In this document: positions 11,608-59,858 of the stretch, piece after piece
Layout: every line of letters begins with the position of its first letter
Position numbering within the stretch: the first letter of the stretch is position 1
Assembly (NCBI GenBank): GCA_035454885.1
Contig: DATIGE010000021.1
Coordinates: 8,897-72,896, forward strand
DNA from: a bacterium
GTDB taxonomy: Bacteria > UBA10199 > JACPAL01 > GCA-016699445
Reading direction: 5' to 3'
DNA length: 64,000 nt
Program-made: the position numbers and the translations under genes
The notes under the pieces: model-generated
What the model was told of the DNA's origin: nothing
The model's database searches: none
What the model saw: the letters and a program-made list of their open reading frames with translations, nothing else

Positions 11608-11740
11608 GCCGGAAATCCAGCCCTCGTGCCGCATCACGTCAAAAAATGTGTCTTTTTTGGGACAGTTACGCTTCTTTTATCGGCAACCTTTGCCGTTCGC
11701 TGTCGATAAGGCGGTTAGGATAGGCACCCCTTGCCGGGGG

Positions 11741-15286: not shown

Positions 15287-15287
15287 T

Positions 15288-16301: not shown

Positions 16302-16310
16302 AGGAGAATC

Positions 16311-20411: not shown

Positions 20412-20421
20412 GGGAGTCTGT

Positions 20422-21387
20422 ATGTATACGACGGGATTATTGGGACAGCTCAATATGATGGCGGCGGGGCTCGGGAACTGGGTTCGCGCCGGGGCCCTGG
20501 CCTTGGGACTCTCCTCGATGAGCGGCGCGGTTGCTGGTTGCGGGTCCGGATCGGACCTTGGCGATTCGGGGATCGGTCCGATCGCCCCGCCGGATGGCAA
20601 TGACACGACGATCCCCAACACGCCCGAGGCCAATCTCGACGCCTGTCTCCCGGCCAATCCCCTGGGTAATCGCTTCAGCGTGCTTGTAGAAGGCGAGGGC
20701 GTCCGCCTGGGCGCGGGGACCCCGACCGACGGCAGCTTCCACATGGTCATGCCGAGTTCGAGTCTGACGATTTTGGGAAGCTCCGACGGACGGATCACGT
20801 TCCGCGGCCGCTTCAAATGGGACAGCGTCCCGTCCGAATGGGCGACGGTCGATCCCGACGCCCCGATCGGCCCTCTGGCCTTGTTCACCCAGGCCCGACA
20901 GTCCGGCCAGCCTCTCACGGACACGAATATGACCCGTGCGGGCCTGACCGGCCCCTGGGCGAATCAATTCCCGGCCTTCGCCGACAAGAACCGCGTGGGC
21001 TTCGCCTGGCCCGTGGAGGGCGTCCTCCATTTCGTCCGGGATTCGGCCGGCCATGTCTCCGATTGCGAGGTCGAGATGACCATCCGCTCCGCCGCCCGGA
21101 CCTCCAGCGGCATGGGACCCGCCCTGGACTACGGCGTCCTGTCGTTCTACGCGCCCCGCGCGGACGGCGAGGAGGCCATGGCGGAGGCGAATTTTGCCAA
21201 CGAAACCGTCGTCATCCTGGACGCTCCCATGGACGTCCTCTTGCCCGTCTCCGGTGAAGTCCAAGATGTCTGCGACGGCGATTGCGTCGACGTGCTCGGC
21301 GCCTCCAACCCCTCCCGCGTCCGCATGCGTCTGATCCGTTACACCCCAACGAGCGGAACGCCCGGCGACGGCGGTGCGGGCGGCTAG
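20422..21387 (+). CDS. hypothetical lipoprotein (321 aa)
   Basis: Signal and lipobox (AVAGC|GSGS). Starts 10 nt after the upstream stop. No known domain. Confidence 0.6.
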   Translation: MYTTGLLGQLNMMAAGLGNWVRAGALALGLSSMSGAVAGCGSGSDLGDSGIGPIAPPDGNDTTIPNTPEANLDACLPANPLGNRFSVLVEGEGVRLGAGTPTDGSFHMVMPSSSLTILGSSDGRITFRGRFKWDSVPSEWATVDPDAPIGPLALFTQARQSGQPLTDTNMTRAGLTGPWANQFPAFADKNRVGFAWPVEGVLHFVRDSAGHVSDCEVEMTIRSAARTSSGMGPALDYGVLSFYAPRADGEEAMAEANFANETVVILDAPMDVLLPVSGEVQDVCDGDCVDVLGASNPSRVRMRLIRYTPTSGTPGDGGAGG

Positions 21388-21448
21388 CTTCCTTTTCGCA
21401 AGCAACAAAAACGTACACCGGTCGAAGAGGCGAATGGAGACTTGATCC

Positions 21449-23422: not shown

Positions 23423-24850
23423 ATGCCAAAATTCTCTCGAAAAACCGCAGCCTTGCTGTTCTTTTTTTTCCTGTATCCGCTGCTTTCCGCGCCGGTTTCC
23501 GCCCAGCTTCTGGGCGGTGGCGACGAGGAGGAATCCTCCGGAAGGACGCTCGAGACGGCGACGGAGAAGGCGAAAAAGCTTTTCGGCGGCGGTTCCGGCG
23601 ATCTTCACCGTCTCACCCTCGACGACTGCGTCCAGAGGGCCCTTGTCTACCAACCCGAGCTGCAGGTGGCCGACTACAGCATCGAGACGGCCAAAGAGAA
23701 AAAAACCGAGGCGAGCCGCATCGGATATCCCATCTTTGATTACGAGTACCAGCTGGCGCCGGTCCCTCAGGACGTCGGCCGCGCGATGGAGAGTTTCTTT
23801 TCGGGCGATATCTCCGTCTTGAACAAGTTCAAGTTGGGCATCGGAGTCCCGATCAACACCTTCGGCAAGGTCAAGACGGGTAAATCACTGGCCGACACGG
23901 GCATCGAGGCCGAGCGGGAGAAGAAGACCCAGAAAAAAGGGGACATTGTCCTTAAGGTCAAACAGCTCTATTACGGCATCTTGCTCGCCGAGGAAGTGAG
24001 CCGCCTCTTGGACTCGGCGCATGGGGGTGTCGATAAGCAGATCAAGAAGAGGGAGGACGAAGGCGGCAGCGACCCCACCGAACTGCTCAAGCTCAAACTC
24101 TTCCGAGCGGAGCTGGAAAAGAAGATGGAGGAGGGCGACAAGAAGCAGATACTCGCCCGCGAGGCGCTGCGGGTCCAACTGGGTCTCGATCCCACGACGC
24201 GTTTCGACCTCGCGACCGACAAGCTCAGGCCGCTCGTGCGGAGGCTGGGTTCGTTCGAGGATTACAAGAAGGAAGCGTGGGAGAACCGCAGCGATCTCAA
24301 GCTCCTGGAGCTGGGTTACGAAGCCAAGGCCAAGCAAGTGAAGTTGGAGAAGAGGCTCATGGCCCCGAACCTCGGCGTGGGCGCGTTTTTCGAGATCGGC
24401 CGCGCGCCGGGCGTGACGGGCGTGACGACGACGGACGATTTCAGCGACCCGTTCAACTTCACGCGCGCCGGCATCGGCCTCCAGCTCAAAGGACAGTTCG
24501 ACTGGCATACGGGGTTTTCGAAAGTACGGCAGGCCAAGAGCGAACTCTACAAGATCGAGGTCCAGAAAGAGCTCGCCCAGGACGGCGTGGACTTGGACGT
24601 GAAGGAGGCCTTCCTGGACGTTCGGAACACCAAGTTGGATGTCGACCGGGCCGAGGAGGCGGGGAAGCTTTCGCGGCAGCTGCTTTTTCTCACACAGAGC
24701 AATTATGACATCGGGCTTGCGGAGCCCAAGGATTTGATCGAAGCTCTGTCCGGTTTTTTGCAGACGCGCGGACAGTACTTCGAGTCCGTGTTCAATTATA
24801 ACGTTGCGGTGGCCAAGCTGGACCAGAAGATCGGACGTTTGCCGGAATAG
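23423..24850 (+). CDS. TolC-family outer membrane efflux/channel protein
   Basis: Signal peptide. Two-repeat coiled-coil/beta architecture. Sequence resembles OEP-family proteins, for example DDCVQRALVYQPELQ...NYDIGLAEPKDLIEAL. Confidence 0.75.
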   Translation: MPKFSRKTAALLFFFFLYPLLSAPVSAQLLGGGDEEESSGRTLETATEKAKKLFGGGSGDLHRLTLDDCVQRALVYQPELQVADYSIETAKEKKTEASRIGYPIFDYEYQLAPVPQDVGRAMESFFSGDISVLNKFKLGIGVPINTFGKVKTGKSLADTGIEAEREKKTQKKGDIVLKVKQLYYGILLAEEVSRLLDSAHGGVDKQIKKREDEGGSDPTELLKLKLFRAELEKKMEEGDKKQILAREALRVQLGLDPTTRFDLATDKLRPLVRRLGSFEDYKKEAWENRSDLKLLELGYEAKAKQVKLEKRLMAPNLGVGAFFEIGRAPGVTGVTTTDDFSDPFNFTRAGIGLQLKGQFDWHTGFSKVRQAKSELYKIEVQKELAQDGVDLDVKEAFLDVRNTKLDVDRAEEAGKLSRQLLFLTQSNYDIGLAEPKDLIEALSGFLQTRGQYFESVFNYNVAVAKLDQKIGRLPE

Positions 24851-45258: not shown

Positions 45259-47301
45259 GTGGACGGAAGACATCACGAGATACGACGTAGGAGGTACGTT
45301 GCCAGGATCATCCCTAGCGTCCTGATGGCCATCGGCCTGTATGCGGCGGCCGCGGCGTTTCCCATTGAGGCCCAGGCCGGCGATACCTGTTTCAGTCATA
45401 TGACCGGCAGCGGATGTGTGACCATCTGCACGGACGGTTCCGCCGAAGACACGCACCGGGACAACCATGGAGATCAGCCGTTCGGGTGCGAATGCGGCGA
45501 TGGCGTGTGTTTCGCCGTCGCGGGCGAGGACTGCAACACATGCCCGCAAGATTGCGGCGTTTGTCCCGGTTGCGGCGACTTGAGTATCACCCCGCCGGAG
45601 GAATGCGACGGATCGGCCTCGGCCTGCGCCGGCATCACGGGTTGCTCGGCCGACGGAAGCACGTGCGACTGCGACGGGTGCCGCTGCGCGCCCTTCTGCG
45701 TCGTCGACGGCGTCTGTAACGGCAGCGAGGATTGCGACAACTGCTCGGCCGATTGCGGCTCCTGTCCCGTCTGCGGCAACGGCGTCGTGGAATCGGGAGA
45801 GCAATGCGACGACGGGAACGGCGACGCGGCCGATTGCTGCGACAACAGTTGCTCCTTTACGACGAACGCCTGCGGGGACGGAAACGCCTGCAACGGCGAC
45901 GAAGTCTGCGCGAACGGCTCGTGCGGGACCGGCACGCCGTTGAGTTGCGACGACTCCAACGTCTGCAACGGGACGGAGACCTGCGATCCGCAATCCGGTT
46001 GCCAAGCCGGCGTCCCTCTGGATTGCGACGATCAGGACGCCTGTACGGACGACACCTGCGACTCGACGTTGGGCTGCGGTCACAGCACGATCGCCTGCTC
46101 CGACGGCGACCTCTGCACGACCGATACTTGCGATCCCTCCTCGGGATGTCTCTTTCCCACTTTGAGCTGCGACGACGGCGATGCCTGCACGAACGATGCC
46201 TGCGACGCAGGTCTCGGGTGTCAGACGTCTCCGACCGATTGCGACGATCAGGTGGACTGCACGACCGACGGCTGCGACCCCTCCCAGGGATGTCTGCACA
46301 CCCCGGATCACGGTGCGTGCGACGACGGCAACCCCTGCACGGACGACGTGTGCGATCCCGTGGAGGGATGCCGCAATGTCGTCGACGTCGAGAATTCCTG
46401 CAGTGACGGTGACGCCTGCAACGGCGTTGAGTCCTGCAATGCGAACGGGGGGTGCGATGCGGGGACGGTGCCCGTGTGCGACGACGGGAATCCCTGCACC
46501 GATGATTCCTGCGATTCCGCGACGGGGTGCGTGGCCGCAGCGGATGACACCAACAGTTGCTCGGACGGTGACGCCTGCAACGGCGCGGAAGCCTGCGTCC
46601 AGGGAAGCTGCCTCGGCAGCGCGCCTCTCGATTGCGACGACGGCAACGTTTGCACTGATGACGCCTGCATTCCCACCACGGGATGCGAGCATTCCGACAA
46701 CACGTCTTCCTGCGACGACGGTGACCCCTGTACGCCGGGCGACGTTTGCGCGGGCGGAGTTTGCGCCGGACGGGACGGCGACAACGACACCGTCGGCGAC
46801 GACTGCGACAAGTGTCCCGGCGGCAATGATCAGGTCGACTCCGACAAGGACGGCATTCCGAACGCCTGCGACAGTTGCGCCGGCGCGGCCACGGATGGCG
46901 ATGGGGATGGAACCCCCGACGCGTGCGATGTCTGTCCCGCGGACGCGACTGATGATTCCGACGGCGACGGGGTGTGCGACGGGGAGGACAACTGCCCGAA
47001 CGCCTCGAATTCCAGTCAAGCCGACGGCGATGCCGACGGCCTGGGCGATGCCTGCGACGATTGTCAGGATGCCAATTTCAACGGAACCTGCGACGACGAG
47101 GAGGGGACGTTGGCCGATGCGCCCGATGCGCCACCTCCACCGCCCGGCGGGGCGCCGACTCCCATGGGCGTGGCCGCGGGCAGGAACTGCCATCTGGTGC
47201 GGGGTGATGCCGCCAAGCCGGGGTCGGACGACCTGCTTCTGTTCCTCGCCGCCGCCGCCTTCCTCGGATCGGTGAGATTTTTTAGGCGTCTTGCGGATTA
47301 A
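45259..47301 (+). CDS. secreted cysteine-rich repeat protein 1 (Myxococcus-type Cys repeats plus TSP3-like Asp repeats), with a C-terminal hydrophobic/basic tail
   Basis: More than 15 repeats of CDDxxxCTxDxCDxxxGC. Followed by DGDGDGTPDACDVCPADATDDSDGDGVCD (TSP3/Ca-binding-like). C-terminus is ...GRNCHLVRGDAAKPGSDDLLLFLAAAAFLGSVRFFRRLAD. Start ambiguous: ATG 45259 with an RRRR n-region, or ATG 45325 giving MAIGLYAAAAAFPIEAQA. Confidence 0.75.
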   Translation: MDGRHHEIRRRRYVARIIPSVLMAIGLYAAAAAFPIEAQAGDTCFSHMTGSGCVTICTDGSAEDTHRDNHGDQPFGCECGDGVCFAVAGEDCNTCPQDCGVCPGCGDLSITPPEECDGSASACAGITGCSADGSTCDCDGCRCAPFCVVDGVCNGSEDCDNCSADCGSCPVCGNGVVESGEQCDDGNGDAADCCDNSCSFTTNACGDGNACNGDEVCANGSCGTGTPLSCDDSNVCNGTETCDPQSGCQAGVPLDCDDQDACTDDTCDSTLGCGHSTIACSDGDLCTTDTCDPSSGCLFPTLSCDDGDACTNDACDAGLGCQTSPTDCDDQVDCTTDGCDPSQGCLHTPDHGACDDGNPCTDDVCDPVEGCRNVVDVENSCSDGDACNGVESCNANGGCDAGTVPVCDDGNPCTDDSCDSATGCVAAADDTNSCSDGDACNGAEACVQGSCLGSAPLDCDDGNVCTDDACIPTTGCEHSDNTSSCDDGDPCTPGDVCAGGVCAGRDGDNDTVGDDCDKCPGGNDQVDSDKDGIPNACDSCAGAATDGDGDGTPDACDVCPADATDDSDGDGVCDGEDNCPNASNSSQADGDADGLGDACDDCQDANFNGTCDDEEGTLADAPDAPPPPPGGAPTPMGVAAGRNCHLVRGDAAKPGSDDLLLFLAAAAFLGSVRFFRRLAD

Positions 47302-47325
47302 CACGCTGTGGATGGGGAGATTTCC

Positions 47326-48708
47326 ATGTTCAAGCGGACCCGTGGTGTCGGTCTTGCGGTCGTTCTCCTAGCCGGACTCATCACCCATCCTCGTTCGGCC
47401 GGCGCCCTCAACGTCCAGCTGCTCCGGCCCGGCACGGGGCATGTTCAAGGGTTTCACCTCTTCACATCGGAAACCCTGCCGAAACACCGTTTGGCCGCCG
47501 GTCTGAATCTGAATCTGGCCAATCACCCCTTCGAACAGGTCCCGGTCGGAACGACCATCCGGACCACCGGCCTGGTCGACCGTTTCGTGACGGCGGACTT
47601 GCTCCTGTCCTATGGGGCCCTCGATTGGTTGACCTTGAACTTGGGGATGCCGGTCAACGTCTACCACGACATCGCCCCGACCCCGACGTCCGGACGGGAT
47701 CGCGGCGGCGGAGACGCCGGCGACCTCATCTTGAACGCCAAGATCCGCATCTTTGACGCCGAGAAGACGGGGTCTCATCTGGGACTCGCCGTCGTGCCTT
47801 TTGTGACCTTGCCGACGGGGAGACAGTCCATCTTTTTCGGGGATTCCTCGGTGACGGGCGGTGCCGTCGTGGCGGGCGACGCCCAATGGAAGTCGAACCG
47901 GTTCTACCTGAACGTCGGGGCCCGCTTCCGCGAGACGGAGACGATCGCGAATTTGACGGTCAAGCATGAGTTCGTCTTCGGCGGCGGTTTTCAGCGGCCG
48001 ATCGTCAAGAAGTGGGATTTGAACGTCATCGCGGAAGTCTTCGGTTCGACGACGCTGTCGAAAAATTTCGTCGTCCAGGACATCTCGACGCCTCTCGAAG
48101 GCATGGTCGTCCTGCAGAAAAAATGGTTGGAGAACCGGAATTTGATCACGCACGTCGGGGCCGGGGCGGGACTCACCAACGGTTATGGGGCGCCCAACGT
48201 GCGGGCGATCCTGGGCGTCTCGTATGCCTGGGATTTCAAGAAGGATGACAGACCCGCGCCCGTGGCCGTCCGCGAAGAGGTGATTGCGACGAGCAAGATC
48301 CACTTTGCCTACAATCGCTCGGAAATCCTTCCTTCGTCGCACGCCGTCTTGGACGACATCGTCCGGACGATCAAGGGGAGGCCGGAAATCCGGCAGGTTC
48401 GCGTGGAAGGGCATACCGACAGCCACGGCGCGGACGAGTACAATCAAAGGCTCTCCGAAAAGCGGGCCCAGGCCGTCATGCAATATCTCACGAACAACGG
48501 CATTCCGGCCGACCGGGTGACCGCCGTTGGGATGGGAGAAACGAAGCCGGTTGCGGACAATGTCACGAAGTCCGGCCGCGCGCAGAACCGGCGCGTGGAG
48601 TTCCACCTTCAGGTCGCGGAAGGGGCGAAAGTCCGCATCCGCGAATCCCAGGAAGCGGCCCCCACCTACGAACAGGGCGACCCCGGTGAGACCCGCCGTC
48701 GCCGCTGA
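47326..48708 (+). CDS. OmpA-family outer membrane protein 1 (about 300-aa N-terminal beta domain plus OmpA C-like peptidoglycan-binding domain)
   Basis: Signal peptide. C-terminal VEGHTDSHGADEYNQRLSEKRAQAV...GRAQNRRVEF. Confidence 0.85.
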   Translation: MFKRTRGVGLAVVLLAGLITHPRSAGALNVQLLRPGTGHVQGFHLFTSETLPKHRLAAGLNLNLANHPFEQVPVGTTIRTTGLVDRFVTADLLLSYGALDWLTLNLGMPVNVYHDIAPTPTSGRDRGGGDAGDLILNAKIRIFDAEKTGSHLGLAVVPFVTLPTGRQSIFFGDSSVTGGAVVAGDAQWKSNRFYLNVGARFRETETIANLTVKHEFVFGGGFQRPIVKKWDLNVIAEVFGSTTLSKNFVVQDISTPLEGMVVLQKKWLENRNLITHVGAGAGLTNGYGAPNVRAILGVSYAWDFKKDDRPAPVAVREEVIATSKIHFAYNRSEILPSSHAVLDDIVRTIKGRPEIRQVRVEGHTDSHGADEYNQRLSEKRAQAVMQYLTNNGIPADRVTAVGMGETKPVADNVTKSGRAQNRRVEFHLQVAEGAKVRIRESQEAAPTYEQGDPGETRRRR

Positions 48709-48843
48709 TCCCTCCAAAACCCTCTCAAATTGATAAAGCCTGATAAGGCCTGGGTGCTGATTGACCCGATTTCTCGGCACCGCGGCGGGGCCGTTTCCTT
48801 ATTTTTCAGGCCCTTAACGACGATGCCCGTGCTCATGACGCAA

Positions 48844-48861
48844 TTGGTAAACGTCTTGCAC
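48844..48861 (+). promoter_or_regulatory. possible sigma-54-type promoter upstream of Cys-rich protein 2
   Basis: TTGGTAAacgtcTTGCAc, i.e. GG-N10-GC with a perfect -12 TTGCA, about 40 nt upstream of the ATG at 48899. The -24 element is imperfect. Confidence 0.35.
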
Positions 48862-48898
48862 TAGCCCCCGATGACGAATCACAAAGTTGGGGGGAGTT

Positions 48899-51721
48899 AT
48901 GAAGGTCATCCGAGTGCTTGTAACGTTCGGTTACAGAATTCTGGGACGTCTCTTCCTCCCATTTGCCGTCCTCGGGATTGGCCTGCTCCTGGTGCCGAGC
49001 GAAGCCGAGGCGGCCCGATCCTGCGTCTGCCACAATATTATCAACAACCCCAACGAAGTCTGCGCCGCCAGCCGTTCTGTTCTTGAAACAGGACACGCAA
49101 GTCACGTTGCCGACGGAAAAGATCGTTACGGCACTTGCGACAGTTGCGGCGATGCCATCCTGCAATGTTGCACTTTCGTACCAAACACCTCGCCTCCGGT
49201 CGCCGATGAATGTTGCGTGGTCGACTGTCAGGGGCAGGCCGAGATTTCGCCGGGAGTTCCCTGCGTCGCCGATCCCAATTGCGGAACGAACGGCGACGGC
49301 TCCTCGCTTCCCCAGTGCTCCCAGGAGGAGTGCGATGACGGCGACAATGATTGCAGCACCAACGATTGCACCCCGGACTGCAAATCGACGCCGAGCTGCG
49401 GCGACGACAATGTTTGCACCGATGATTTCTGCTGTAATGGTTCCAATGATCCGGATCCGCTTTGTTCCGAGGCGGGCGTCTGTGTGAACAAAAACAACAC
49501 CGATCCATGTGATGATGATGATGAGTGCACCGACGGCGACGTCTGTCAAAGTGGAGTTTGCGTCCCAGGGGGTCCCAAGGATTGCAGCGACGGACTCTTC
49601 TGTACCCAAGATCTTTGCGATCCGGCGACGGGCTGCGACTGGAGTCAACCCACCGAATGCTCGGACGGAACCGTCTGCACCACGGACACGTGCAACGAGG
49701 ACAACGACCAGTGCGAGTTTCCCGGGATTAGTTGCGACGATTTAGATGCCTGCACCGATGACAGCTGCGATGCGGAAAAGGGATGCGGTCATTCTCCGCA
49801 CGATTGCGACGACAACAACCGATGCACTGACGACAGCTGTAATTCGGAGGATGGCTGCCATTATGCCTCCCATGATTGCGACGATGAAAAGACCTGCACG
49901 GACGACAGTTGCGATCCGGTAGAGGGCTGCGGTCACTCGCCTAACAATGGATCCTGCGATGACGGCAACCCTTGTACCGACGACGTCTGCAACCCTTCGG
50001 GGTGTGAGGAAGGGGACGAGACGTGCGTCCAAGACGAAAATTTCGAAACAAACGGTTGTATCCACATCTATAATGATTCCGGGACCGCCTGCGGCGATGA
50101 AAGCGATACCGACTGTGATAATCCGGATACCTGCGACGGACGCGGGACCTGTCAGGACAACAACGAGGACAACGGGACGGAGTGCACGACCGACGATAAC
50201 GCATGCACGGACGACGTCTGTTCCGAAGGTGTCTGCACGCATCCCGCCGATGATCAGAACTCCTGCGACGACGGGAACGCCTGTACTCGTGACGCTTGTA
50301 CGAGCGGGGAATGCGTCGGCACCGACATCTCGGCCGAATGCCCGGATGACGACAATGCCTGCACGGATAAGAGCTGCGATCCGAAATCCGGTTGCGGTCA
50401 AACCAACGACGACAGCAACGAATGCTCGGACGGCAACGCCTGCACGAGCGACGCCTGCTCGAGCGGGGAATGCGTCGGCACCGACATCTCGTCCGAATGC
50501 CCGGATGACGACAATGCCTGCACGGATAAGAGCTGCGATCCGAAATCGGGTTGCGGTCAAACCAACGACGACACCAATCAATGCTCGGACGGCGACGCCT
50601 GCACGAGCGACGCCTGCTCGAGCGGGGAGTGTGTCGGCACCGACATCTCGGCCGAATGCCCGGATGACGACAATCCCTGCACGGATAAGAGCTGCGATCC
50701 GAAATCCGGTTGCGGTCAAACCAACGACGACAGCAATGAATGCTCCGATGGCAACGCCTGCACGACCGTCGATGTCTGCAGCGAGGGTGAATGCCTCGGC
50801 AGCGTACCGCCGATCTGCGACGACCAAAACCCCTGCACGGACGACTCCTGCGATCCGAATGCAGGCCAGAAAGAGGTTGCTCGCTTCATCAGCGAGACGC
50901 AGCCCGTCGACCCGTGCGTGCATACGCCAGACGTGACCAACGAGTGCACCGACGGCGATGCCTGCAACGGTCTGGAGCAATGCGTCCTCTTGCTGGACGG
51001 CGATGTCGTCTATGGAGCGGCATGCGAAGCGGGTACGCCTCCCAACTGCGACGACAACAACCGGTGCACGGGCGAGACGTGCGATCCGGCGGTGGGCTGC
51101 GTATCCGTCCCCCTGCCCGATACGGACGGGGACCACATCCCGAACGTTTGCGACGTCTGCACCGGCGGGGACGATGAGGTGGATGGAGACGGGGATTCGG
51201 TCGCCGACGCCTGCGATAACTGCCCCAAGAATTCCAATTCGAGTCAGTCGGATTCGGATGGAGACGGCCTGGGCGACGCCTGCGACAACTGCCCCGACAT
51301 CGCCAATCCGGACCAGGCGGACTCCAACGGGAACGGCGCCGGGGACGCCTGTGACGACGAAGGCGAATTGGCGAGCTGCATCGCCCTTCCCGGAAACGAA
51401 CCCCCCGAGGTTCTGTTCGGTGCGGCCGAGAAGACCAAGGGTGTCATCACGATCCCGGTGTCGATCGTCGATCCCGAAGGGGATAATTTCACGACAACCT
51501 GCTCGGTGGATGAGGGCACGGTGGCCCTGGGCGAGGGTGTTGTGACCTACACGATCCCGACGCCCCTCGATCCGAAATCGGACGGTCTGATCACCGTGAG
51601 CTGCACGGTGGGCGACTCCGGGAGCTGCCAGGAAAAGACCTTCAAGACCGTAGTCAGCATCGGCGTGGCGGGGGATCAGCTGGGCAGCGGATGCTCCCTA
51701 TTGCCGTCGAGTCCAAAATAA
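48899..51721 (+). CDS. secreted cysteine-rich repeat protein 2 (paralogue of 45259..47301)
   Basis: Signal peptide MKVIRVLVTFGYRILGRLFLPFAVLGIGLLLVPSEAEA. About 20 Myxococcus-type Cys repeats, including three near-identical 52-aa units. TSP3-like Asp repeats. Ends ...GSGCSLLPSSPK. Confidence 0.8.
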   Translation: MKVIRVLVTFGYRILGRLFLPFAVLGIGLLLVPSEAEAARSCVCHNIINNPNEVCAASRSVLETGHASHVADGKDRYGTCDSCGDAILQCCTFVPNTSPPVADECCVVDCQGQAEISPGVPCVADPNCGTNGDGSSLPQCSQEECDDGDNDCSTNDCTPDCKSTPSCGDDNVCTDDFCCNGSNDPDPLCSEAGVCVNKNNTDPCDDDDECTDGDVCQSGVCVPGGPKDCSDGLFCTQDLCDPATGCDWSQPTECSDGTVCTTDTCNEDNDQCEFPGISCDDLDACTDDSCDAEKGCGHSPHDCDDNNRCTDDSCNSEDGCHYASHDCDDEKTCTDDSCDPVEGCGHSPNNGSCDDGNPCTDDVCNPSGCEEGDETCVQDENFETNGCIHIYNDSGTACGDESDTDCDNPDTCDGRGTCQDNNEDNGTECTTDDNACTDDVCSEGVCTHPADDQNSCDDGNACTRDACTSGECVGTDISAECPDDDNACTDKSCDPKSGCGQTNDDSNECSDGNACTSDACSSGECVGTDISSECPDDDNACTDKSCDPKSGCGQTNDDTNQCSDGDACTSDACSSGECVGTDISAECPDDDNPCTDKSCDPKSGCGQTNDDSNECSDGNACTTVDVCSEGECLGSVPPICDDQNPCTDDSCDPNAGQKEVARFISETQPVDPCVHTPDVTNECTDGDACNGLEQCVLLLDGDVVYGAACEAGTPPNCDDNNRCTGETCDPAVGCVSVPLPDTDGDHIPNVCDVCTGGDDEVDGDGDSVADACDNCPKNSNSSQSDSDGDGLGDACDNCPDIANPDQADSNGNGAGDACDDEGELASCIALPGNEPPEVLFGAAEKTKGVITIPVSIVDPEGDNFTTTCSVDEGTVALGEGVVTYTIPTPLDPKSDGLITVSCTVGDSGSCQEKTFKTVVSIGVAGDQLGSGCSLLPSSPK
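50314..50781 (+). repeat. three tandem copies of a near-identical 156-bp (52-aa) unit inside Cys-rich protein 2
   Basis: Unit reads SGECVGTDIS[AS]ECPDDDN[AP]CTDKSCDPKSGCGQTNDD[ST]N[EQ]CSDG[ND]ACTSDACS. The DNA copies differ at only a handful of positions, and the period is 156 nt by offset of the repeated gcgtcggcaccgacatctcg strings. Confidence 0.8.
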
Positions 51722-51780
51722 GGTAAAGGGCATTCCCATCATCATAATACAGAAGCAGAAGTGCAAGCCCGGGGGGGCTT

Positions 51781-53133
51781 ATGAAAAAGACGCTGTGCCT
51801 CGTAGTGGGTGTCCTCGCCGTCTCGTTCGCCGCGCTTCCAAGATCCTGGGCCTTGAACGTCCAACTCCTCCGCCCCAGCACGGGGCACGTGAAGGGCTAC
51901 CAGCTCTTCACCTCCGAAACATTGCCTAAATACACGCTGGCGGCGGGCCTCAACGTCAATTTCGCCCATCACCCGTTTGAATTGACCATCGCCGGCACGA
52001 CGAGCCGGGTCCTGGGCATCGTCGACCGGTTCGTGACGGCGGATTTTCTGGTCTCCTACGGCCTGACTAATTGGTGGACGATCAACGTCGACATGCCGCT
52101 CAACATCTACCACGACATCGCCCCGACGTTCATCGCGACGCGGGACCGGGGAGGCGGGGATCCGGGCGACCTGGGAGTCAACATGAAGTTTAGGGTCTTC
52201 GACGCGAACGAGACCTCCACCGGCCTGGGGCTGGCGTTTGTTCCGTTTGTCACCGTCCCGACGGGCCGCCAGTCGGTCTGGTTCGGCGATGAGAACCTGA
52301 CGGGCGGAGCGATCCTGGTGGGCGACGCCCAGTGGAAAGCGAACCGGTTTTACCTGAACGTGGGCGGGCGTTTCCGGGAGAGGGAGCAGGTCACGAATCT
52401 AATCGTCAAGAATGAGCTCCTTTACGGCCTCGGTTTCACGCGTCCGATCGTGAAGGACTGGGACTTCAACATCATTCTCGAAGTTTTCGGTTCGACGAAC
52501 TTCCGGAAGTTCGCGACGGAGAACATCTCATCGCCGATCGAAGGCCTGGCGATTCTTCAAAAGAAGTGGGGTGAGAACCGGAGACTCATCACGCACGTGG
52601 GCGGGGGATTCGGGATTACGAACGGTTACGGCGTTCCCACGTGGCGGGCGCTCATCGGCGTTTCCTACGCTTGGGATTTGAAGCCGGCGCCCAAACCGGT
52701 CCGCGAAGAGGTCATCACGACGAACAAGATCCACTTCGCCTTCGACAAGGCCGAAATCAAGCCGTCGTCGTATCCCGTCATCGATGAAATCATACGCACC
52801 ATCCAAAGCAAGAATGTCGTCGCCGTGCGTGTCGAAGGCCACACGGACAGCTACGGGACGGACGCGTACAACCAAAAGCTCTCGGAACGGCGGGCCAACG
52901 CCGTCATGAATTACCTGACCTCACACGGGATACCGGCCGAAAAGGCCAGCGCGGTCGGCATGGGAGAGTCGAAGCCGGTCGCGGACAATGCAACCAAGGC
53001 CGGCCGCGCGGAAAACCGGCGTGTCGAATTCCACCTCGAGATCCCCGAGGGTTCGAAGGTCAGGGTGCAGGAATCCAGCCAAGAGGCCCCGCATTACGAG
53101 GAGGGCGATCCGGGCGGGCGCCCAAGAAAATAA
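51781..53133 (+). CDS. OmpA-family outer membrane protein 2 (paralogue of 47326..48708)
   Basis: Collinear similarity along its full length to OmpA-like 1 (ALNVQLLRP.TGHV.G..LFTSETLPK...). OmpA C-like domain VEGHTDSYGTDAYNQKLSERRANAV. Confidence 0.85.
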   Translation: MKKTLCLVVGVLAVSFAALPRSWALNVQLLRPSTGHVKGYQLFTSETLPKYTLAAGLNVNFAHHPFELTIAGTTSRVLGIVDRFVTADFLVSYGLTNWWTINVDMPLNIYHDIAPTFIATRDRGGGDPGDLGVNMKFRVFDANETSTGLGLAFVPFVTVPTGRQSVWFGDENLTGGAILVGDAQWKANRFYLNVGGRFREREQVTNLIVKNELLYGLGFTRPIVKDWDFNIILEVFGSTNFRKFATENISSPIEGLAILQKKWGENRRLITHVGGGFGITNGYGVPTWRALIGVSYAWDLKPAPKPVREEVITTNKIHFAFDKAEIKPSSYPVIDEIIRTIQSKNVVAVRVEGHTDSYGTDAYNQKLSERRANAVMNYLTSHGIPAEKASAVGMGESKPVADNATKAGRAENRRVEFHLEIPEGSKVRVQESSQEAPHYEEGDPGGRPRK

Positions 53134-53227
53134 GCATCTGGTTTTAAAGGCCTTTTTAAGTAAGTAAATATTGATTTATCGAATTGATTGTCTGGCGCCT
53201 CAGGCCGAATTCGGTTAAAATCAATCG

Positions 53228-54790
53228 GTGAAAAGACGCGTCTCCCGTCGTCATTCCCATCATCGCAAGAAATGGCCTTTTCCTCTGGTTCCCGCCATTG
53301 CGGCGACGACGGCGGTCTTGGTATTGGCCCTGGTCATCATCCTCAAGCGCGCGGGACCGCCCCAAGTCGCCGCCGTGCCGCCGCTTCCCCAAAGCCGCAG
53401 CATGCAGCCCATGAGGCCGGAACCGGCCGCAAGGCCATCCATGCCGTCCGTGACGGCTCAGCCGGCCGCGCAGACCGCCTTGAAGCGTCCGGTTTTCGTG
53501 GCGGCGCCGGATCCGCGTTGCCACAGGCTGGGTCGCCTGAACGCCTCGTTCTACCGGTGCGGAGAGAGCTTGATTCTTTTGAAGGAAGGGGCGGAGTTTC
53601 CGGAGGACCTCAAGTCCGCGCCGTGGCAGAGGACGCTCGGCGAATTGATGAATCGCGGATTGATCGACGGCGCTTTGGCCACGGAGAAGGGGGACATCAC
53701 CCTCGCGACGGTCCCGAACGACGCCCGTTTCGCCGATCAGACGTTCTTGAACGGTGACGCCCCGTACGACATCGGCGCCCTGGACGCCTGGAGCGCCGTG
53801 ACGGGCAGCCCCGACCTGACGGTCGCGATCCTCGACAGCGGCATCGATCTCGTCCATCCGGACCTCCAGGCCAATCTTTGGACCAATGAGGGCGAAGTTC
53901 CCGGCAACGCGACGGACGACGACGGCAACGGGTATATCGACGACGCCAATGGCTATAATTTCAACGCCGCAACGGCCGACAACCAGGACGACAAAGGGCA
54001 CGGGACGCACGGGGCGGGGGTTATCGGCGCGGTGGGCAACAACGGGATCGGAATCGCCGGGATCAACTGGAACGTGAACCTCCTGCCGCTCAAGATCACG
54101 GACGCAGACGGCAAAGCCTCGCTGGCTGCGGCCGTGGAGGCGATCAACTACGCAATAGAAAACAACGCGAAGGTCATCAACGCCAGTTGGGTCATGAGCC
54201 TTTCGACGCCCGAGAAGGTCAATCTCCTGCAGACGGCGGTTCAGAACGCCGTGAGCGCGGGGATTGTCTTCGTGGCGGCCGCCGGCAACAACGCGGGGCA
54301 GGATCTTGACGCGTCGCCCCTGTATCCCGCGTCGTTTGATTTGCCGGGGGTCGTGACGGTCGCGGCGGTCGATGCGGACCGGGTGCTCGCTTCGTTCTCC
54401 AACATCGGCGCCAATTCCGTCGACCTGGCGGCTCCGGGAATGGGCATCCTGTCGACCGCGATCGGAGGGGACTTCAGTTCGTCCGCCGGGACTTCGGTCG
54501 CGGCGACCGTCGTGAGCGGCGCGGCCGCACTCCTGCTGGCCCAAAAGCCTTCTCTCAGCCCCGCCGAAGTCAGAAACGTCCTCATGGAGACCGCGACGGC
54601 CTCCCCGTCGCTTTCCGGCAAGACGGTGAGCGGCGGATCGCTCAACTTGAAGGCGGCTCTGGCGGCCGTGGGGGCTTCCGTGGGGTCTTCGGATTCCTCG
54701 GGAGAACCCAAATCGGACGTGGCCGCCTCGGCGGCCAAATCGACCTCTTCGGGGTCGTCCGGAGGCGGCTGTTCGTTGGCGGGGCCTTAG
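53228..54790 (+). CDS. subtilisin-like (S8 family) serine peptidase with an N-terminal signal-anchor
   Basis: Catalytic triad blocks AILDSGID (Asp), HGTHGAGVIG (His), GTSVAATVVSGAAALL (Ser). Ends ...SSGGGCSLAGP. Confidence 0.88.
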   Translation: MKRRVSRRHSHHRKKWPFPLVPAIAATTAVLVLALVIILKRAGPPQVAAVPPLPQSRSMQPMRPEPAARPSMPSVTAQPAAQTALKRPVFVAAPDPRCHRLGRLNASFYRCGESLILLKEGAEFPEDLKSAPWQRTLGELMNRGLIDGALATEKGDITLATVPNDARFADQTFLNGDAPYDIGALDAWSAVTGSPDLTVAILDSGIDLVHPDLQANLWTNEGEVPGNATDDDGNGYIDDANGYNFNAATADNQDDKGHGTHGAGVIGAVGNNGIGIAGINWNVNLLPLKITDADGKASLAAAVEAINYAIENNAKVINASWVMSLSTPEKVNLLQTAVQNAVSAGIVFVAAAGNNAGQDLDASPLYPASFDLPGVVTVAAVDADRVLASFSNIGANSVDLAAPGMGILSTAIGGDFSSSAGTSVAATVVSGAAALLLAQKPSLSPAEVRNVLMETATASPSLSGKTVSGGSLNLKAALAAVGASVGSSDSSGEPKSDVAASAAKSTSSGSSGGGCSLAGP

Positions 54791-57312
54791 AGATTATTTA
54801 AGTCCTTAAAGAGAAAATCCACGCCCCGGCTCGCGGGGGCCTCGCCACTGGGAATCGCCAGATCCTCGGGTTTTGGAGCCGCGTCCTCCAGGGCCGAGCC
54901 TCCCGTCATCGAGTCGATATTGGCGAGTTTGATGTACGCGGGCTTCGCGAAGTCCAAGACCGGCCGATCCTTCAACGCCTCCTCCATGTAGTAGAGCCAG
55001 ATAGGCGCCGAAACCACGCCGCCAGTCATGCCCGGACCGATCTTCTTGCGGCTGTCGTAGCCGGTCCAGACGCCCGTGATGAGGTCGGGTGTGAAGGCGA
55101 CGAACCAGGCGTCGGACTCGTCGTTGGTGGTCCCCGTCTTGCCGGCCGCCGGCCGCTTGAGGGACTTTGCCTTGAATCCCGTGCCGTGGTCGATGACGTC
55201 CGTCAAAAGGTTGGTCATGAGAAAGGCCGTCTGAGGGCTGATGACGTGTCCCGGCGGGATCGAGGCTCCGTAGAGGATGCGTTTTTCCTCCGGAGTCACC
55301 TTGAGATTCTCCTTCTCGATGACCTTTTCGCCCTCCGCCAGAAGCTCGCCGTTGAAGCCCGCGCCGGAGCCGCTCCCGGGGACGTCGAAAACGTGCGCGG
55401 CATCCGCGACCGCGGGCCGGTTCTCCTCGAGTACGTTGCCGTCCTTGTCCACGATCTTGCGGATGAAAAGGGGGGTGGGCCTGACCCCTCCCGCGGGGAA
55501 AGTGGCGAAGGCGCGCGTGAGGTCGAAGAGCGTCACATCCGAGGCCCCGAGGGCCGTTGAAAGGTAACGCGCGATGGGCGTCGAGATTCCGAGTTTACGC
55601 GCGTAGGCCACCGTGTAGTCGATGCCGATGTCGTGGAAGACCTTGACCGCGATGACGTTGTTCGAATGCGTGATGGCGCTCCGCACGGGCATGGGACCGT
55701 TGTGCTTGCGGCTGTAATTCTCGGGGCTCCAGAACCGGTTGCGGCCCACCTTGTACTCGACCGGGGCGTCGATGACCGTCGTGCCGGGCGTGTAGCCCTT
55801 GTCCAGGGCGGCGGAATAAACGATGGGCTTGAACGCCGATCCCGGCTGACGGATCGCCTGGGTCGCGCGGTTGAACTCGCTGCGCTTGAAGCTGAAGCCG
55901 CCGATCATCGCCTTCACCTCGCCCGTCAGGGGATTGAAGGAGAAGAGCGCGGACTCGAGCTTGGGTTCCACCTCGATGGTGAACTCGCCGTCGGCCGTCC
56001 GGCGGACCCAGTAGATTTCGCCGACCTTGGGCGTCCGCCCCGTCCACTTGCGGTTCTCGGGGGGGATTGTCCCTTCCGCGTGACCGACGACCACCGTCGC
56101 GGTGCCCTGGTCGTCCACGGCCGAGATCACGCCCCGGTAGATGTGGCCTTCCTCGATGGGCGTGGAGAGCGGGGGAATCTCCGGATTGGGAGGCATGCGG
56201 ATCGGTTCGTCCAACTCCGTGAGCTGCAGGTGGACCTGGTCCGCGAATTCCCGGATCTTGTCCGGCGCGACCCTCTCCACGGGCCCGTGGAAGCCCTTGC
56301 GGCGCTCCACCTCCAAGAGTCCGCGCTTCACGGCGCGGTCGGCGGCCTGGTAGTCGGCGAGATTGACCGTCGTGTGGATCTTGAGTCCTCCCCCGTAGAG
56401 CGTCTGTTGGCCGAAGTTCTGCTCGATCGTCCGGCGCACGTGTTCCACAAAATAGGGCGCGTATAGGTCGTTAAAATCCTTGTCGATGCCCGCGCGATAG
56501 AGAGTCAGCGGGGCCTTCAGGGCCTCCTCGTATTCGGCCTTCGAGATGTACCGATTCTCGAGCATTTGGGAGAGCACGTGCTCCTGGCGCAGGCGCGCCA
56601 TGGCGGGATTGACGAGCGGGGAGAAGGCCGTCGGGGCCGAGGGGAGTCCCGCGATCATCGCCGTCTCCGCAAGCGTCAGCTCCGTGATGTCCTTGTGGAA
56701 ATAATTCCGCGCGGCGGCCTGGACGCCGTGGGCCCGGTTCCCCAAAAAGATCTGGTTCAGATAGATGTAGAGGATCTGCTCCTTCGTGAAATTCTGCTCG
56801 AGCTGCGTGGCGAGGATGGCCTCCTTCACCTTGCGGTCGAAGCTTTTCTCGCGAGAGAGGACGAGGGAGCGGGTGACCTGCTGGGTGATCGTCGATCCTC
56901 CCTGCACGACCTTGCCCGCCCGGAGGTTTTCGAAAAAAGCCCGGAGGATGCTCTTGAAGTCGACGCCCTTGTGGTCCCAAAAACGCTCGTCCTCGGACGC
57001 CACGAAGGCGTCGATCACGCGGCGCGGGATCTTCTCGTAGGGCAAGAGATAGCGGCACTCCTGCCAAAATTCGCCGATTTTCGAATTGTCGTCGGCGAAC
57101 ACCTCGCTCACGAGCAGGGGCTTGTAGTCGGCGATGCCCCCGAGCTTGGGCAGGTCCTTGGCGAAGTGGTAATAGAGGACGCTGGTGCCCACGACGAAGA
57201 CGCCGACGGCGATTGCCAGGAGTCCGAAGGCGACTTTGAAGAGGCGGCCGACGCCCTCGAGGACGGTGGACACGTTTCGCACCTCATTTAAGATCCCAAG
57301 ACCGATTCGCAC
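54787..57312 (-). CDS. mrcA: class A penicillin-binding protein (PBP1A; glycosyltransferase plus transpeptidase)
   Basis: Glycosyltransferase motifs EDERFWDHKGVD and GGSTITQQ. Transpeptidase motifs SAFKP, SHN-like and KTGT. Confidence 0.9.
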   Translation of the reverse strand: MRIGLGILNEVRNVSTVLEGVGRLFKVAFGLLAIAVGVFVVGTSVLYYHFAKDLPKLGGIADYKPLLVSEVFADDNSKIGEFWQECRYLLPYEKIPRRVIDAFVASEDERFWDHKGVDFKSILRAFFENLRAGKVVQGGSTITQQVTRSLVLSREKSFDRKVKEAILATQLEQNFTKEQILYIYLNQIFLGNRAHGVQAAARNYFHKDITELTLAETAMIAGLPSAPTAFSPLVNPAMARLRQEHVLSQMLENRYISKAEYEEALKAPLTLYRAGIDKDFNDLYAPYFVEHVRRTIEQNFGQQTLYGGGLKIHTTVNLADYQAADRAVKRGLLEVERRKGFHGPVERVAPDKIREFADQVHLQLTELDEPIRMPPNPEIPPLSTPIEEGHIYRGVISAVDDQGTATVVVGHAEGTIPPENRKWTGRTPKVGEIYWVRRTADGEFTIEVEPKLESALFSFNPLTGEVKAMIGGFSFKRSEFNRATQAIRQPGSAFKPIVYSAALDKGYTPGTTVIDAPVEYKVGRNRFWSPENYSRKHNGPMPVRSAITHSNNVIAVKVFHDIGIDYTVAYARKLGISTPIARYLSTALGASDVTLFDLTRAFATFPAGGVRPTPLFIRKIVDKDGNVLEENRPAVADAAHVFDVPGSGSGAGFNGELLAEGEKVIEKENLKVTPEEKRILYGASIPPGHVISPQTAFLMTNLLTDVIDHGTGFKAKSLKRPAAGKTGTTNDESDAWFVAFTPDLITGVWTGYDSRKKIGPGMTGGVVSAPIWLYYMEEALKDRPVLDFAKPAYIKLANIDSMTGGSALEDAAPKPEDLAIPSGEAPASRGVDFLFKDLNNL

Positions 57313-58709: not shown

Positions 58710-59858
58710 ATGAGACGAACATTCCCGTCCGTCGTTTTCACCCTCATGTGGACCGTGTCCGCCGTAGCCTTCGGCGGAGGCGGATGCGCCAAACCGGGCG
58801 CGAAGACGATTCCCGTCGGCGAATACGGCTCCCTCACGGGGGGGACGGCCACCTTCGGGCAGAGCTCGCATCAGGGCACGATGCTCGCGACGGAGGAGGT
58901 CAACGCCGCCGGGGGTCTCTTGGGCCAGAAGGTCGAGGTCATCACCGAGGACGACCAGAGCCGGCCGGAAGAGGCCAAGACGGCGGTGCTCAAACTCATC
59001 AAGCAAAACAACGTGGTGGCGGTCATCGGGGAAGTTGCGTCGTCGCGGAGCCTGGCGGCCGCGCCCGAATGCCAAAAGTCGAAGATTCCGATGATCAGCC
59101 CGGCGTCCACCAATCCCAAGGTGACGGAGATCGGCGACTACATCTTCCGCGCTTGTTTCGTCGACACGTTTCAAGGCGAGGCGATGGCCAAGTTCGCCAG
59201 GAACGACCTGAAGCTTTCGCGCGTCGCGGTTTTGAAGGACGTCAAGAACGACTACTCGGTCGGCCTGGCGGACTTTTTCGAAAAAACCTTCAAGGCGGAG
59301 GGCGGCGAGATCACGGTGGTTCAGTCCTATTCCGAGGGTGACATCGACTTCCGCGCCCAATTGACGGCCATCAAGGGACAGAGCCCGGACGGGGTCTTTG
59401 TGCCGGGTTACTACACCGAAGTGGGTTTGATCGCGCGCCAGGCCCGGGAGTTGGGGATCACCGTCCCGCTGATGGGCGGAGACGGCTGGGACTCGCCCAA
59501 GACCATCGAGATCGGCGGGGCGGCGGTGGAGGGCAGCTACTTCGGGAACCACTACGCGGCCGACGACCCGGACCCAGTCATCCAGTCCTTCATCCAAAAA
59601 TTCAAGGCGAAGTACGGAATTGTCCCCGACGCCATGGCGGTGCTGGGTTACGATGCCGCGAGTCTCCTCTACGACGCGATCAAGCGCGCGGGGAGCGCCG
59701 AACCGGCGAAGATCCGCGATGCGTTGGCGGCGACGGCGGATTTTCAGGGCGTCTCCGGCAAGCTCACCATGGACGCGAACCGGAACGCGAAAAAGAAGCT
59801 CGTGATCATGAAGATCGAGAACGGGGCGAATAAATTCCACGCCGAGGTCAAACCGTAG
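58710..59858 (+). CDS. livK: branched-chain amino acid ABC transporter substrate-binding protein (LivK/LivJ family)
   Basis: Type I periplasmic binding protein fold (VAVIGEVASS...ISPASTNPK...). Signal/lipoprotein-like N-terminus (GGGGC). Confidence 0.85.
   Translation: MRRTFPSVVFTLMWTVSAVAFGGGGCAKPGAKTIPVGEYGSLTGGTATFGQSSHQGTMLATEEVNAAGGLLGQKVEVITEDDQSRPEEAKTAVLKLIKQNNVVAVIGEVASSRSLAAAPECQKSKIPMISPASTNPKVTEIGDYIFRACFVDTFQGEAMAKFARNDLKLSRVAVLKDVKNDYSVGLADFFEKTFKAEGGEITVVQSYSEGDIDFRAQLTAIKGQSPDGVFVPGYYTEVGLIARQARELGITVPLMGGDGWDSPKTIEIGGAAVEGSYFGNHYAADDPDPVIQSFIQKFKAKYGIVPDAMAVLGYDAASLLYDAIKRAGSAEPAKIRDALAATADFQGVSGKLTMDANRNAKKKLVIMKIENGANKFHAEVKP

Follow-up and report, generated by a model that had tools for sequence, protein, structure and literature searches.

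Two proteins encoded close together in a contig of an uncultivated bacterium (DATIGE010000021.1, 95,661 bp, assembly GCA_035454885.1) end in the same few residues, a Gly-rich run followed by Cys-Ser-Leu, and stop shortly afterwards. Why do they carry what looks like the start of a Cys-type C-terminal sorting signal, with none of the transmembrane (TM) helix and Arg-rich end that would normally follow? The stretch analysed here, the window, is 64,000 bp (positions 8,897 to 72,896 of the contig), and the two proteins are a Cys-rich protein (Cys-rich protein 2) and a subtilase of peptidase family S8. Their shared ending, Gly-rich and then GCSL, was noticed in an original prediction made from the letters of the window alone, and its coordinates and sequences were reproduced. 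Cys-rich protein 2 ends ...GVAGDQLGSGCSLLPSSPK, then TAA, and the S8 protein ends ...SGSSGGGCSLAGP, then TAG. The tails are located as follows:

51683..51721, + strand: short Cys tail GSGCSLLPSSPK of Cys-rich protein 2 (residues 933-944 of 944) with stop codon TAA
54761..54790, + strand: short Cys tail GGGCSLAGP of the S8 protease (residues 512-520 of 520) with stop codon TAG

Within the window, a Gly-Cys motif at the end of an open reading frame (ORF) is restricted to these two genes. The codons that specify the tails are unlike (TGC TCC CTA TTG versus TGT TCG TTG GCG), so the tails do not represent a recent DNA copy.

Both stops are genuine, as had been claimed. Neither read-through nor the +1 and +2 frames revealed a TM helix followed by an Arg-rich or basic tail, in the window or in nine related loci, and the hydrophobic stretches found downstream of the tail stops are solely the signal peptides of the next gene. 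The S8 stop codon overlaps that of a convergent PBP1A gene by 4 bases (54787-54790), and this overlap is kept in two related loci (L085, 8465-8468; L088, 3466-3469). Frameshifts or assembly errors, which had been named beforehand as a possible cause of the short ends, do not account for them, as identical short ends recur in independent assemblies from NCBI, JGI, ENA and Logan. A recoded stop codon was ruled out because TAA, TAG and TGA are all used across the tail-bearing loci, and Hedgehog- or intein-like autoprocessing at the Gly-Cys bond was ruled out because the 4-8 residues beyond the Cys are too few to make up a Hint domain.

The tail is conserved in homologues of both proteins. Among the best 120 matches to the S8 protein, it was found on the 31 closest (P0001-P0030 and P0032) and on P0052, P0088 and P0092; the other, more distant subtilases of the 120 lack it. 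Including those of the window protein and of a locus designated L102, there are 35 distinct S8 tails. The Cys and the Gly that precedes it (position -1) are invariant in these, and Gly is found at -2 in 33/35, Ser or Ala at +1 in 34/35 (Asn in the other one) and Leu at +2 in 33/35. In an alignment of 29 S8 sequences, with identities to the window protein down to approximately 41%, G514 and C515 never vary, and G513 and L517 hardly do. No alignment is possible for the 30-40 residues that precede the tail; thus, the linker drifts and the tail is kept.

When the last 118 residues of Cys-rich protein 2 were used as a query, without a word index, all eight true homologues of this C-terminal domain ended in G-(S/G)-G-C-[SA]-L-[IVLM]-[RP] plus 0-4 residues. 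Further Cys-rich tails are present in L085, L087 (two copies) and L088, with one more in L099. A scan of metagenomes with a diverse alignment of the barrel domain encoded by the neighbouring genes (see below) identified seven loci, two of which had new tails; the lineage is rare in metagenome collections. Altogether, the Cys-rich family has 12 distinct tails of the form G-(S/G)-G-C-[SAT]-L-[IVLM]-[RP]...

When the 47 distinct tails (35 S8 and 12 Cys-rich) were pooled, the Gly at -1 and the Cys were found in 47/47. Position +1 is Ser or Ala in 45/47, +2 is Leu in 45/47, +3 is Ile, Val, Leu or Met in 41/47, or Ala, and +4 is mostly Pro, Arg, Gln or Lys. Between 4 and 17 residues follow the Cys, never fewer than four, and exactly four is the commonest number (17/47). 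The alignment of homologue C-termini that the original prediction had proposed as a check is therefore strongly positive, and its view of a single family of C-terminal tags centred on a conserved Cys holds, the Cys being invariant in both families. The tail takes the form [GS]-G-C-[SA]-L-[IVLM]-x followed by 0-13 more residues and is a real C-terminal protein tag. The two protein families that share it are unrelated to each other and both are exported.

As a negative control, we reused 80 unrelated subtilase loci (1.21 Mb, containing 3987 ORFs of at least 100 aa and 940,479 residues) that a contig scan with the S8 alignment had returned on account of generic S8 motifs. The core motif, counted as [GS]GC[SAT][LMF][hydrophobic], occurs just three times in the 940,479 residues and is not C-terminal in any of the 3987 ORFs. 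None of the S8 genes of the 80 control loci is tailed, and a looser pattern gave one chance-like match, in a non-S8 ORF. In the window and its relatives, 14/14 occurrences of the core motif lie 4-20 residues before a stop. The tail is far beyond chance. In local tests, isolated real tails gave E values of at least 93 at a database size of 5.8 billion proteins.

Relatives of the two proteins carry longer tails that begin in the same way. Cys-rich protein 1, encoded further upstream in the window, is a paralogue of Cys-rich protein 2 that lacks the 118-aa C-terminal domain. Its C-terminus (...GRNCHLVRGDAAKPGSDDLLLFLAAAAFLGSVRFFRRLAD / ...GVAAGRNCHLVRGDAAKPGSDDLLLFLAAAAFLGSVRFFRRLAD) has all of the parts of a tripartite signal:

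47167..47301, + strand: full tripartite tail of Cys-rich protein 1 (signature, spacer, hydrophobic segment, basic segment and stop)
47167-47202, + strand: signature GVAAGRNCHLVR
47203-47232, + strand: 10-residue hydrophilic spacer GDAAKPGSDD
47233-47274, + strand: hydrophobic segment LLLFLAAAAFLGSV
47275-47298, + strand: basic segment RFFRRLAD

This tail aligns with those of two Cys-rich/TSP3 proteins found in L091, a 2.4 Mb contig, where they are encoded upstream of a relative (49% identical) of the barrel/OmpA-domain partner genes that accompany the Cys-rich genes in the window. The L091 proteins end ...HVGGGLTCQLVADQGPAPLGGYGWLLFMLIPLLALRTLRR... and ...GGGFTCQLVAGQAPSPLGGYGWLLFMTVPLLALRMMRR... 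and have the pattern GGG[LF]TCQLVA...GGYGWLLFM..PLLALR..RR in common; V, G, C, L, V, P, G, LLF, L, R and RR are invariant when Cys-rich protein 1 is included. In L092, where the partner is 60% identical, a 2166-aa TSP3 protein ends ...GSGFDTVSCALAYSAPGAGSLMTVLLALAGLAGIGIRRWRS. A full tail is also found in P0067, a PKD-domain-containing S8 protein that is more distant and was assigned to a 'Deltaproteobacteria' metagenome-assembled genome (MAG). It ends ...PGSSGGCSLSRENSVSVLPYNLFVLLGFYLLKRKSS..., made up of GSSGGCSL, 14 further residues, LFVLLGFYLL and KRK. The suggestion that Cys-rich protein 1 has a complete sorting-type signal is borne out by its alignment with the L091 tails. Intergenic read-through was rejected as an explanation for its TM extension, given this alignment and a coding-like G+C content at third codon positions (GC3). 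The DNA sequences of the Cys-rich protein 1 end and of L087 are highly diverged.

Comparison of the long and short tails revealed that they share the signature. The C-H-L-V-R of Cys-rich protein 1 matches C-[SA]-L-V-R in the short tails, the signature C-[HQSA]-L-[VA] of the full signals matches C-[SA]-L-[VI] of the short ones, and the G-D-Q-L-G-S-G that precedes the Cys in the short form resembles G-Q-H-V-G-G-G in L091. As C-x-L-V/A is succeeded in relatives by a spacer, then a TM helix, then basic residues, the proposal that the short tails are the beginning of a complete Cys, TM and Arg signal was upheld. The two forms also occur on one type of protein. P0137 is 45% identical to Cys-rich protein 1 (388 bits) over the first 600 residues, and it ends in a 118-aa C-terminal domain and the short tail GSGCSLVR. 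As this is a protein of the Cys-rich protein 1 type with a short tail, close relatives carry either form. We conclude that the short tail is, in all likelihood, the signature part of a Cys-type tripartite signal from which the membrane part has been lost or in which it was never present, and that loss or retention of the membrane part occurred in two protein families. In the tripartite relatives, a hydrophilic spacer of 11-15 residues lies between the Cys and the helix, so the signature would be outside the membrane, and a dispensable helix is plausible.

An RGD tripeptide in Cys-rich protein 1 had also been pointed out. It is due to chance, as 0.34 are expected per protein of such composition and it is not conserved in the related tails.

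The S8 protein provides a view of how the short tail may be displayed. Its membership of peptidase family S8 is clear (PF00082, 178 bits versus a cut-off of 21.8), and its catalytic residues are D203, H258, N354 and S423, with D203, H258 and S423 invariant in the alignment. The protein has an N-terminal TM helix at residues ~18-41. In an AlphaFold2 (AF2) model based on the 29-sequence alignment (pTM 0.73), this helix covers residues 21-41 and is followed by disorder, a small pro-like domain and a confident catalytic core that extends to residue 487. Residues 488-520 have a pLDDT of approximately 30 and are not docked on the fold. Between the catalytic domain and the tail is the following segment:

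54668..54760, + strand: low-complexity Ser/Gly/Ala linker (residues 481-511), joining the tail to the catalytic domain

In the model, therefore, the S8 tail sits at the end of a flexible tether, an arrangement typical of anchor signals. The tail Cys is the sole Cys outside the signal peptide in most members of a distant S8 clade (P0010-P0032), and in the clade that includes the window protein the remaining Cys are mostly even in number; thus, the tail Cys appears to be unpaired within the protein.

The two S8 clades differ in other respects. Members of the window clade have an N-terminal TM helix (53279-53344; residues 21-41 in AF2) instead of an obviously cleavable signal peptide, and a conserved Cys pair (PDPRCHRLGRLNASFYRCGE) in the pro-like region (53500-53570). 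In the distant clade the signal peptides are of the ordinary kind and the pro-region Cys pair is absent. The start codon of the window S8 gene is uncertain. The protein read from the GTG start has no exact database record, and its database twin, P0001, starts further in and begins MPSVTAQ. The distant tail-bearing S8 genes are in a different neighbourhood, with CysS-IspF-IspD-CarD on one side and a ComEA-like gene, a small ORF and a polyprenyl synthase gene on the other. Their position between the isoprenoid genes ispD/ispF, with carD and cysS, and a polyprenyl synthase gene is constant (L081, 10001-13128; L082, 10001-13068; L084, 10001-12984). There is no other tagged ORF within 10 kb of these S8 genes and no Cys-rich neighbour. 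Isoprenoid genes are curious company for a CaaX-like tail, and the arrangement may be plain housekeeping synteny. To judge from accession numbers, a single MAG apparently encodes both P0032, one of the distant S8 proteins, and P0161, which is 80% identical to the barrel partner in the window, and one lineage probably holds both S8 types.

In the window, the tagged genes are part of a run of five consecutive genes on the + strand (Cys-rich 1, OmpA-domain, Cys-rich 2, second OmpA-domain and S8 protease), which converges with a gene on the - strand:

45259-47301, + strand: Cys-rich protein 1 (680 aa; Pfam PF00526, E 4e-20)
47308-48708, + strand: partner gene 1, predicted 12-stranded outer-membrane barrel with a C-terminal OmpA peptidoglycan-binding domain (Pfam OmpA, E 6e-26)
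48887-51721, + strand: Cys-rich protein 2 (944 aa; Pfam PF00526, E 6.3e-17)
51781-53133, + strand: partner gene 2, predicted 12-stranded outer-membrane barrel with an OmpA domain (Pfam, NCBIfam and AF2)
53228-54790, + strand: S8 (subtilase) protease gene (Pfam PF00082, E 2.8e-52)
54787-57312, - strand: convergent PBP1A gene, its stop overlapping the S8 stop

The Pfam families represented are PF00082 in the protease, PF00691 in the OmpA proteins, and PF00526 (Dicty_CTDC) in the Cys-rich proteins, where DUF4215 also matched. Cys-rich protein 2 consists of a signal peptide, Dicty_CTDC-type Cys-rich repeats, TSP3-like Asp-rich repeats, the 118-aa C-terminal domain (51365-51718) and the short tail. 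The pairing of a Cys-rich gene with an OmpA-domain partner has been duplicated in tandem (45259-53133). The order Cys-rich, barrel-OmpA, S8, PBP1A (- strand) and AI-2E is conserved in L085, L087 and L088, and the S8 proteins of these syntenic relatives are 51-89% identical to that of the window.

The likely start of partner gene 1 is the ATG at 47326. In a model of 51781-52665, AF2 predicts 12 strands (pTM 0.73) for the barrel of partner 2, which takes up the N-terminal 270 residues, and the fold of the partner 1 barrel was deduced from this model of its paralogue. The closest solved structure is the polypeptide transporter FapF (TM-score 0.6-0.7, ~12% identity). FapF transports amyloid subunits, and by analogy with this best solved match the partner barrel may serve as an outer-membrane channel dedicated to the Cys-rich protein. 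The mean identity of the barrel domain among relatives is 82%, far above that of the Cys-rich protein or the S8 protease. Near the barrel/OmpA gene in L091, the segment at 15718-17687 includes an HvfC-like gene, a gene of the MbnB/TglH/ChrH family (MNIO) and a 91-aa ORF, which is the layout of a cluster for the modification of a peptide made by the ribosome and modified after translation (RiPP).

Elsewhere in the window, six consecutive + strand ORFs (10474-23353; 377, 1212, 337, 1366, 321 and 634 aa) have nearly no Pfam matches, with a HAD domain in the last one alone, and precede genes for a TolC-like OEP (23423-24850), an MlaC-like protein and a phosphodiesterase. This run looks like an uncharacterised envelope or secretion cluster. 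No rRNA or tRNA genes and no Rfam families at gathering score were found in the 64-kb window.

Of the known sorting systems, the tail is most readily compared with MYXO-CTERM, which is handled by the myxosortases MrtX, MrtC and MrtP in Myxococcota and Bradymonadales and is described by TIGR03901. Both are C-terminal tags with an invariant Cys preceded by Gly, and the 47/47 tails that have this Cys have it at the extreme C-terminus, 4-17 residues from the end. The carriers of both are surface proteins exported by Sec, among them a protein with Cys-rich repeats whose gene is beside that of an OmpA-domain protein, as for TraA and TraB, and relatives here have Cys, TM and Arg tails. However, the short tail has neither the TM helix nor the Arg cluster of a tripartite architecture, and its sequence is G-C-[SA]-L-hydrophobic rather than GCGC. 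Cys-rich protein 1 does have a TM helix and RFFRR, but these follow a 10-residue hydrophilic spacer, and a hydrophilic spacer of this kind (11-15 residues in the tripartite relatives) is absent from the sorting domains found by Haft. No NCBIfam C-terminal-signal model matched the whole proteins at E≤1, and the isolated tails had no MYXO-CTERM match at E≤10, in a library that is expected to hold TIGR03901, its presence not having been directly shown. The suspected resemblance to a MYXO-CTERM-type signal therefore stands for the signature part of a Cys-type tripartite signal and does not extend to a match with the curated model.

Other Cys-type CTERM signals are alike in that one invariant Cys lies in a short signature close to the C-terminus, and all differ from the short tail in being tripartite, with a TM helix and Arg. 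In the survey by Haft, MYXO-, JDVT-, Synerg- and CGP-CTERM are all tripartite and are cut by proteases of the CPBP/Rce1 family, so that one protease superfamily handles both the long prokaryotic signals and the short eukaryotic CaaX signal. In such Cys-type signals the Cys is needed for cleavage by the CPBP protease, as experiments with MrtX have shown for TraA, and lipidation is thought to come first. JDVT-CTERM (NF033191) scored 6.5 bits on the S8 tail over model positions 1-11, versus a cut-off of 27; its hallmarks are a DP motif ahead of a Leu-rich TM helix and an mrtJ gene next door, and here there is no DP motif, TM helix or CPBP neighbour. GlyGly-CTERM, the rhombosortase signal of VesB in Vibrio cholerae, is similar in having Gly-Gly just before the critical position and in keeping a secreted serine protease on the cell surface, but it possesses a TM helix and basic residues and has no invariant Cys, and no rhomboid gene was seen in the window.

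The eukaryotic CaaX box is closer in size. It too is C-terminal and just a few residues long, with an invariant Cys, then a small residue, then an aliphatic one and few others. Its substrates, which are cytosolic and prenylated by FTase or GGTase-I, have no TM helix, and Rce1, which acts on it, is in the same protease family (CPBP) as the myxosortases. The tails described here differ in that the Cys is 4-17 residues from the end and never three, giving C-a-a-a-X or a longer pattern, and in that their signal peptides or TM anchor would place them in the periplasm or outside the cell, with a cytosolic location unlikely. To our knowledge, there is no prenyltransferase in a periplasmic or extracellular compartment. 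Nor is the tail a lipobox, the Lgt/LspA substrate [LVI][ASTVI][GAS]C that closes an N-terminal signal peptide, as it is C-terminal and has Ala, Gly or Ser at -3 and not Leu. An unusual N-terminal lipobox, AFGGGGC, is found in a LivJ-like binding protein encoded in the window (58710-58790), where orthologues have LAGVGC or LLAAGC, so Gly-Gly-Cys appears to be accepted as the context of a lipidation site in this organism.

The gene pairs recall the TraA/TraB system for outer-membrane exchange of Myxococcus xanthus, in which a Cys-rich-repeat surface protein with a C-terminal Cys tag is likewise followed by an OmpA-domain protein. The repeats of TraA resemble PF00526, and TraB (NF033763) is the best NCBIfam match of both partners. 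However, the scores (166 bits for partner 1 and 173 bits for partner 2) are well short of the cut-off of 700, the Cys-rich proteins have no match to PA14 or TIGR04201 in Pfam and NCBIfam, and the pair here is duplicated in tandem with an S8 gene following. The system is thus not TraA/TraB as currently defined. We found no description of a TM-less Cys tail in the literature, and the short form has not been described before.

Drawing on these analogies, we favour a reading in which the tail is the signature of a tripartite Cys signal, selected without the membrane part, and in which the Cys would be modified, the end trimmed and the protein tethered to the surface; we put its chances at about even. 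More specifically, the tail could be an extracytoplasmic bacterial counterpart of CaaX, a TM-less tag with a lipidated Cys from which a CPBP/Rce1-type protease clips the last four or more residues to leave a surface anchor, although this fuller version is tentative and on balance improbable. In outline, the tail would be carried on a flexible linker by Sec-exported surface proteins (the S8 protease and the TraA-like Cys-rich proteins). Once these are exported, the thiol of the Cys would receive a covalent modification; S-lipidation is the most likely one, by Lgt or another membrane enzyme, in line with what has been proposed for MYXO-CTERM. A CPBP/Rce1-type protease would then remove the at least four residues after the Cys, as in eukaryotic CaaX processing, and the resulting C-terminus would tether the protein to the cell surface. 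The small residue, the Leu and the hydrophobic residue after the Cys would be P1'-P3' of the cleavage. Rce1 favours substrates whose second residue after the Cys is aliphatic, and the invariant Leu of the tail is a parallel to this.

Several points weigh against this. What is seen directly is the conserved terminal motif with an unpaired Cys, from which modification and cleavage are inferred. No CPBP, rhomboid or Lgt gene was found in the window or in the flanks read of relatives. Only two protein families are tagged in the data covered, and a many-to-one sorting system would be expected to serve more. A search with the tripartite tails of L091 and Cys-rich protein 1 returned 11 candidates, none of which was significant. 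How a soluble periplasmic precursor with no TM helix would stay at the membrane for lipidation lacks an explanation. Finally, as the Cys is never exactly three residues from the end, there is no canonical CaaX box.

The main rival is that the tail is left unprocessed and that its single free Cys is joined by a disulfide to a second protein, either one that is also tagged or one that is anchored, for example Cys-rich protein 1. The outcome would be covalently linked dimers, or a tether that holds the protein to a subunit anchored in the membrane. Most S8 homologues have an unpaired tail Cys, the AF2 model places it on a flexible linker, and the window has both TM-anchored and short forms of one signature, all of which would suit such a bond. 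However, a disulfide does not explain why Ser or Ala, Leu and a hydrophobic residue are conserved after the Cys, or why at least four residues always follow it. Moreover, both Cys-rich paralogues in L087 are short-tailed with no anchored partner encoded nearby, and no other tagged ORF lies within 10 kb of the distant S8 genes. We consider a disulfide unlikely.

A second alternative is that the tail is recognised without any covalent bond and guides the protein across the outer membrane or docks it there, with either the FapF-like barrel/OmpA protein or a type II secretion system as the receiver and with the Cys needed for recognition alone. The predicted 12-strand barrel, with FapF as its best solved match, and the duplication and synteny of the gene pair are consistent with the first of these, and MYXO-CTERM proteins use the type II secretion system. 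However, at this TM-score and level of identity the barrel match is a generic similarity of fold, an invariant Cys would be unusual in a purely non-covalent signal, and tail-bearing S8 genes elsewhere are in a housekeeping neighbourhood with no barrel partner. This explanation appears quite improbable.

The third would make the tail a substrate motif of the S8 protease itself, which would process its own tail and those of the Cys-rich proteins or act as a sortase-like transpeptidase in the manner of PatG-type subtilases. In the original prediction, the adjacent protease had been named as a conceivable processor, the alternative being an unlinked CPBP/rhomboid-type sortase. Its catalytic residues are intact, its gene follows the Cys-rich/barrel pairs in all close relatives, and it has weak similarity to the PatA/PatG proteases. 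However, that similarity (82 bits versus a cut-off of 421) is generic to S8 proteins, and the need for a Cys is left unexplained. The S8 protein is itself tagged, it is the sole tagged protein nearby in the distant clade, where there is no Cys-rich neighbour to process, and the tripartite-tailed Cys-rich proteins of L091 and L092 have no S8 neighbour. The adjacent protease seems very improbable as the processor, with no evidence pointing to it. Both this explanation and recognition by a partner are weakened because S8 genes carry the tail in the absence of such neighbours.

That the tail is an artefact, a decaying remnant of a lost TM signal or a product of chance, as its truncated look and the existence of full versions might suggest, is effectively refuted by the short ends in independent assemblies, the use of three stop codons with no downstream TM helix in any frame, the overlap of the S8 stop with a convergent gene, the control loci that lack such tails, and a motif that is invariant at ~41-46% overall identity while the linker drifts.

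If the tag indeed keeps the Cys signature alone, recognition and chemistry at the Cys may not require that the substrate be anchored in the membrane, and Cys-type sorting signals would be able to do without their TM helix and Arg part. This would link bacterial Cys-type sorting more closely to eukaryotic CaaX processing, which relies on the same protease family. As no curated model matched the tail, it is currently missed by gene annotation, and it should be of interest to the protein-sorting field. At 6-10 residues, it is a very small candidate tag for surface display, and it may offer a way to find the enzyme by which the Cys is modified in signals of the MYXO-CTERM type.

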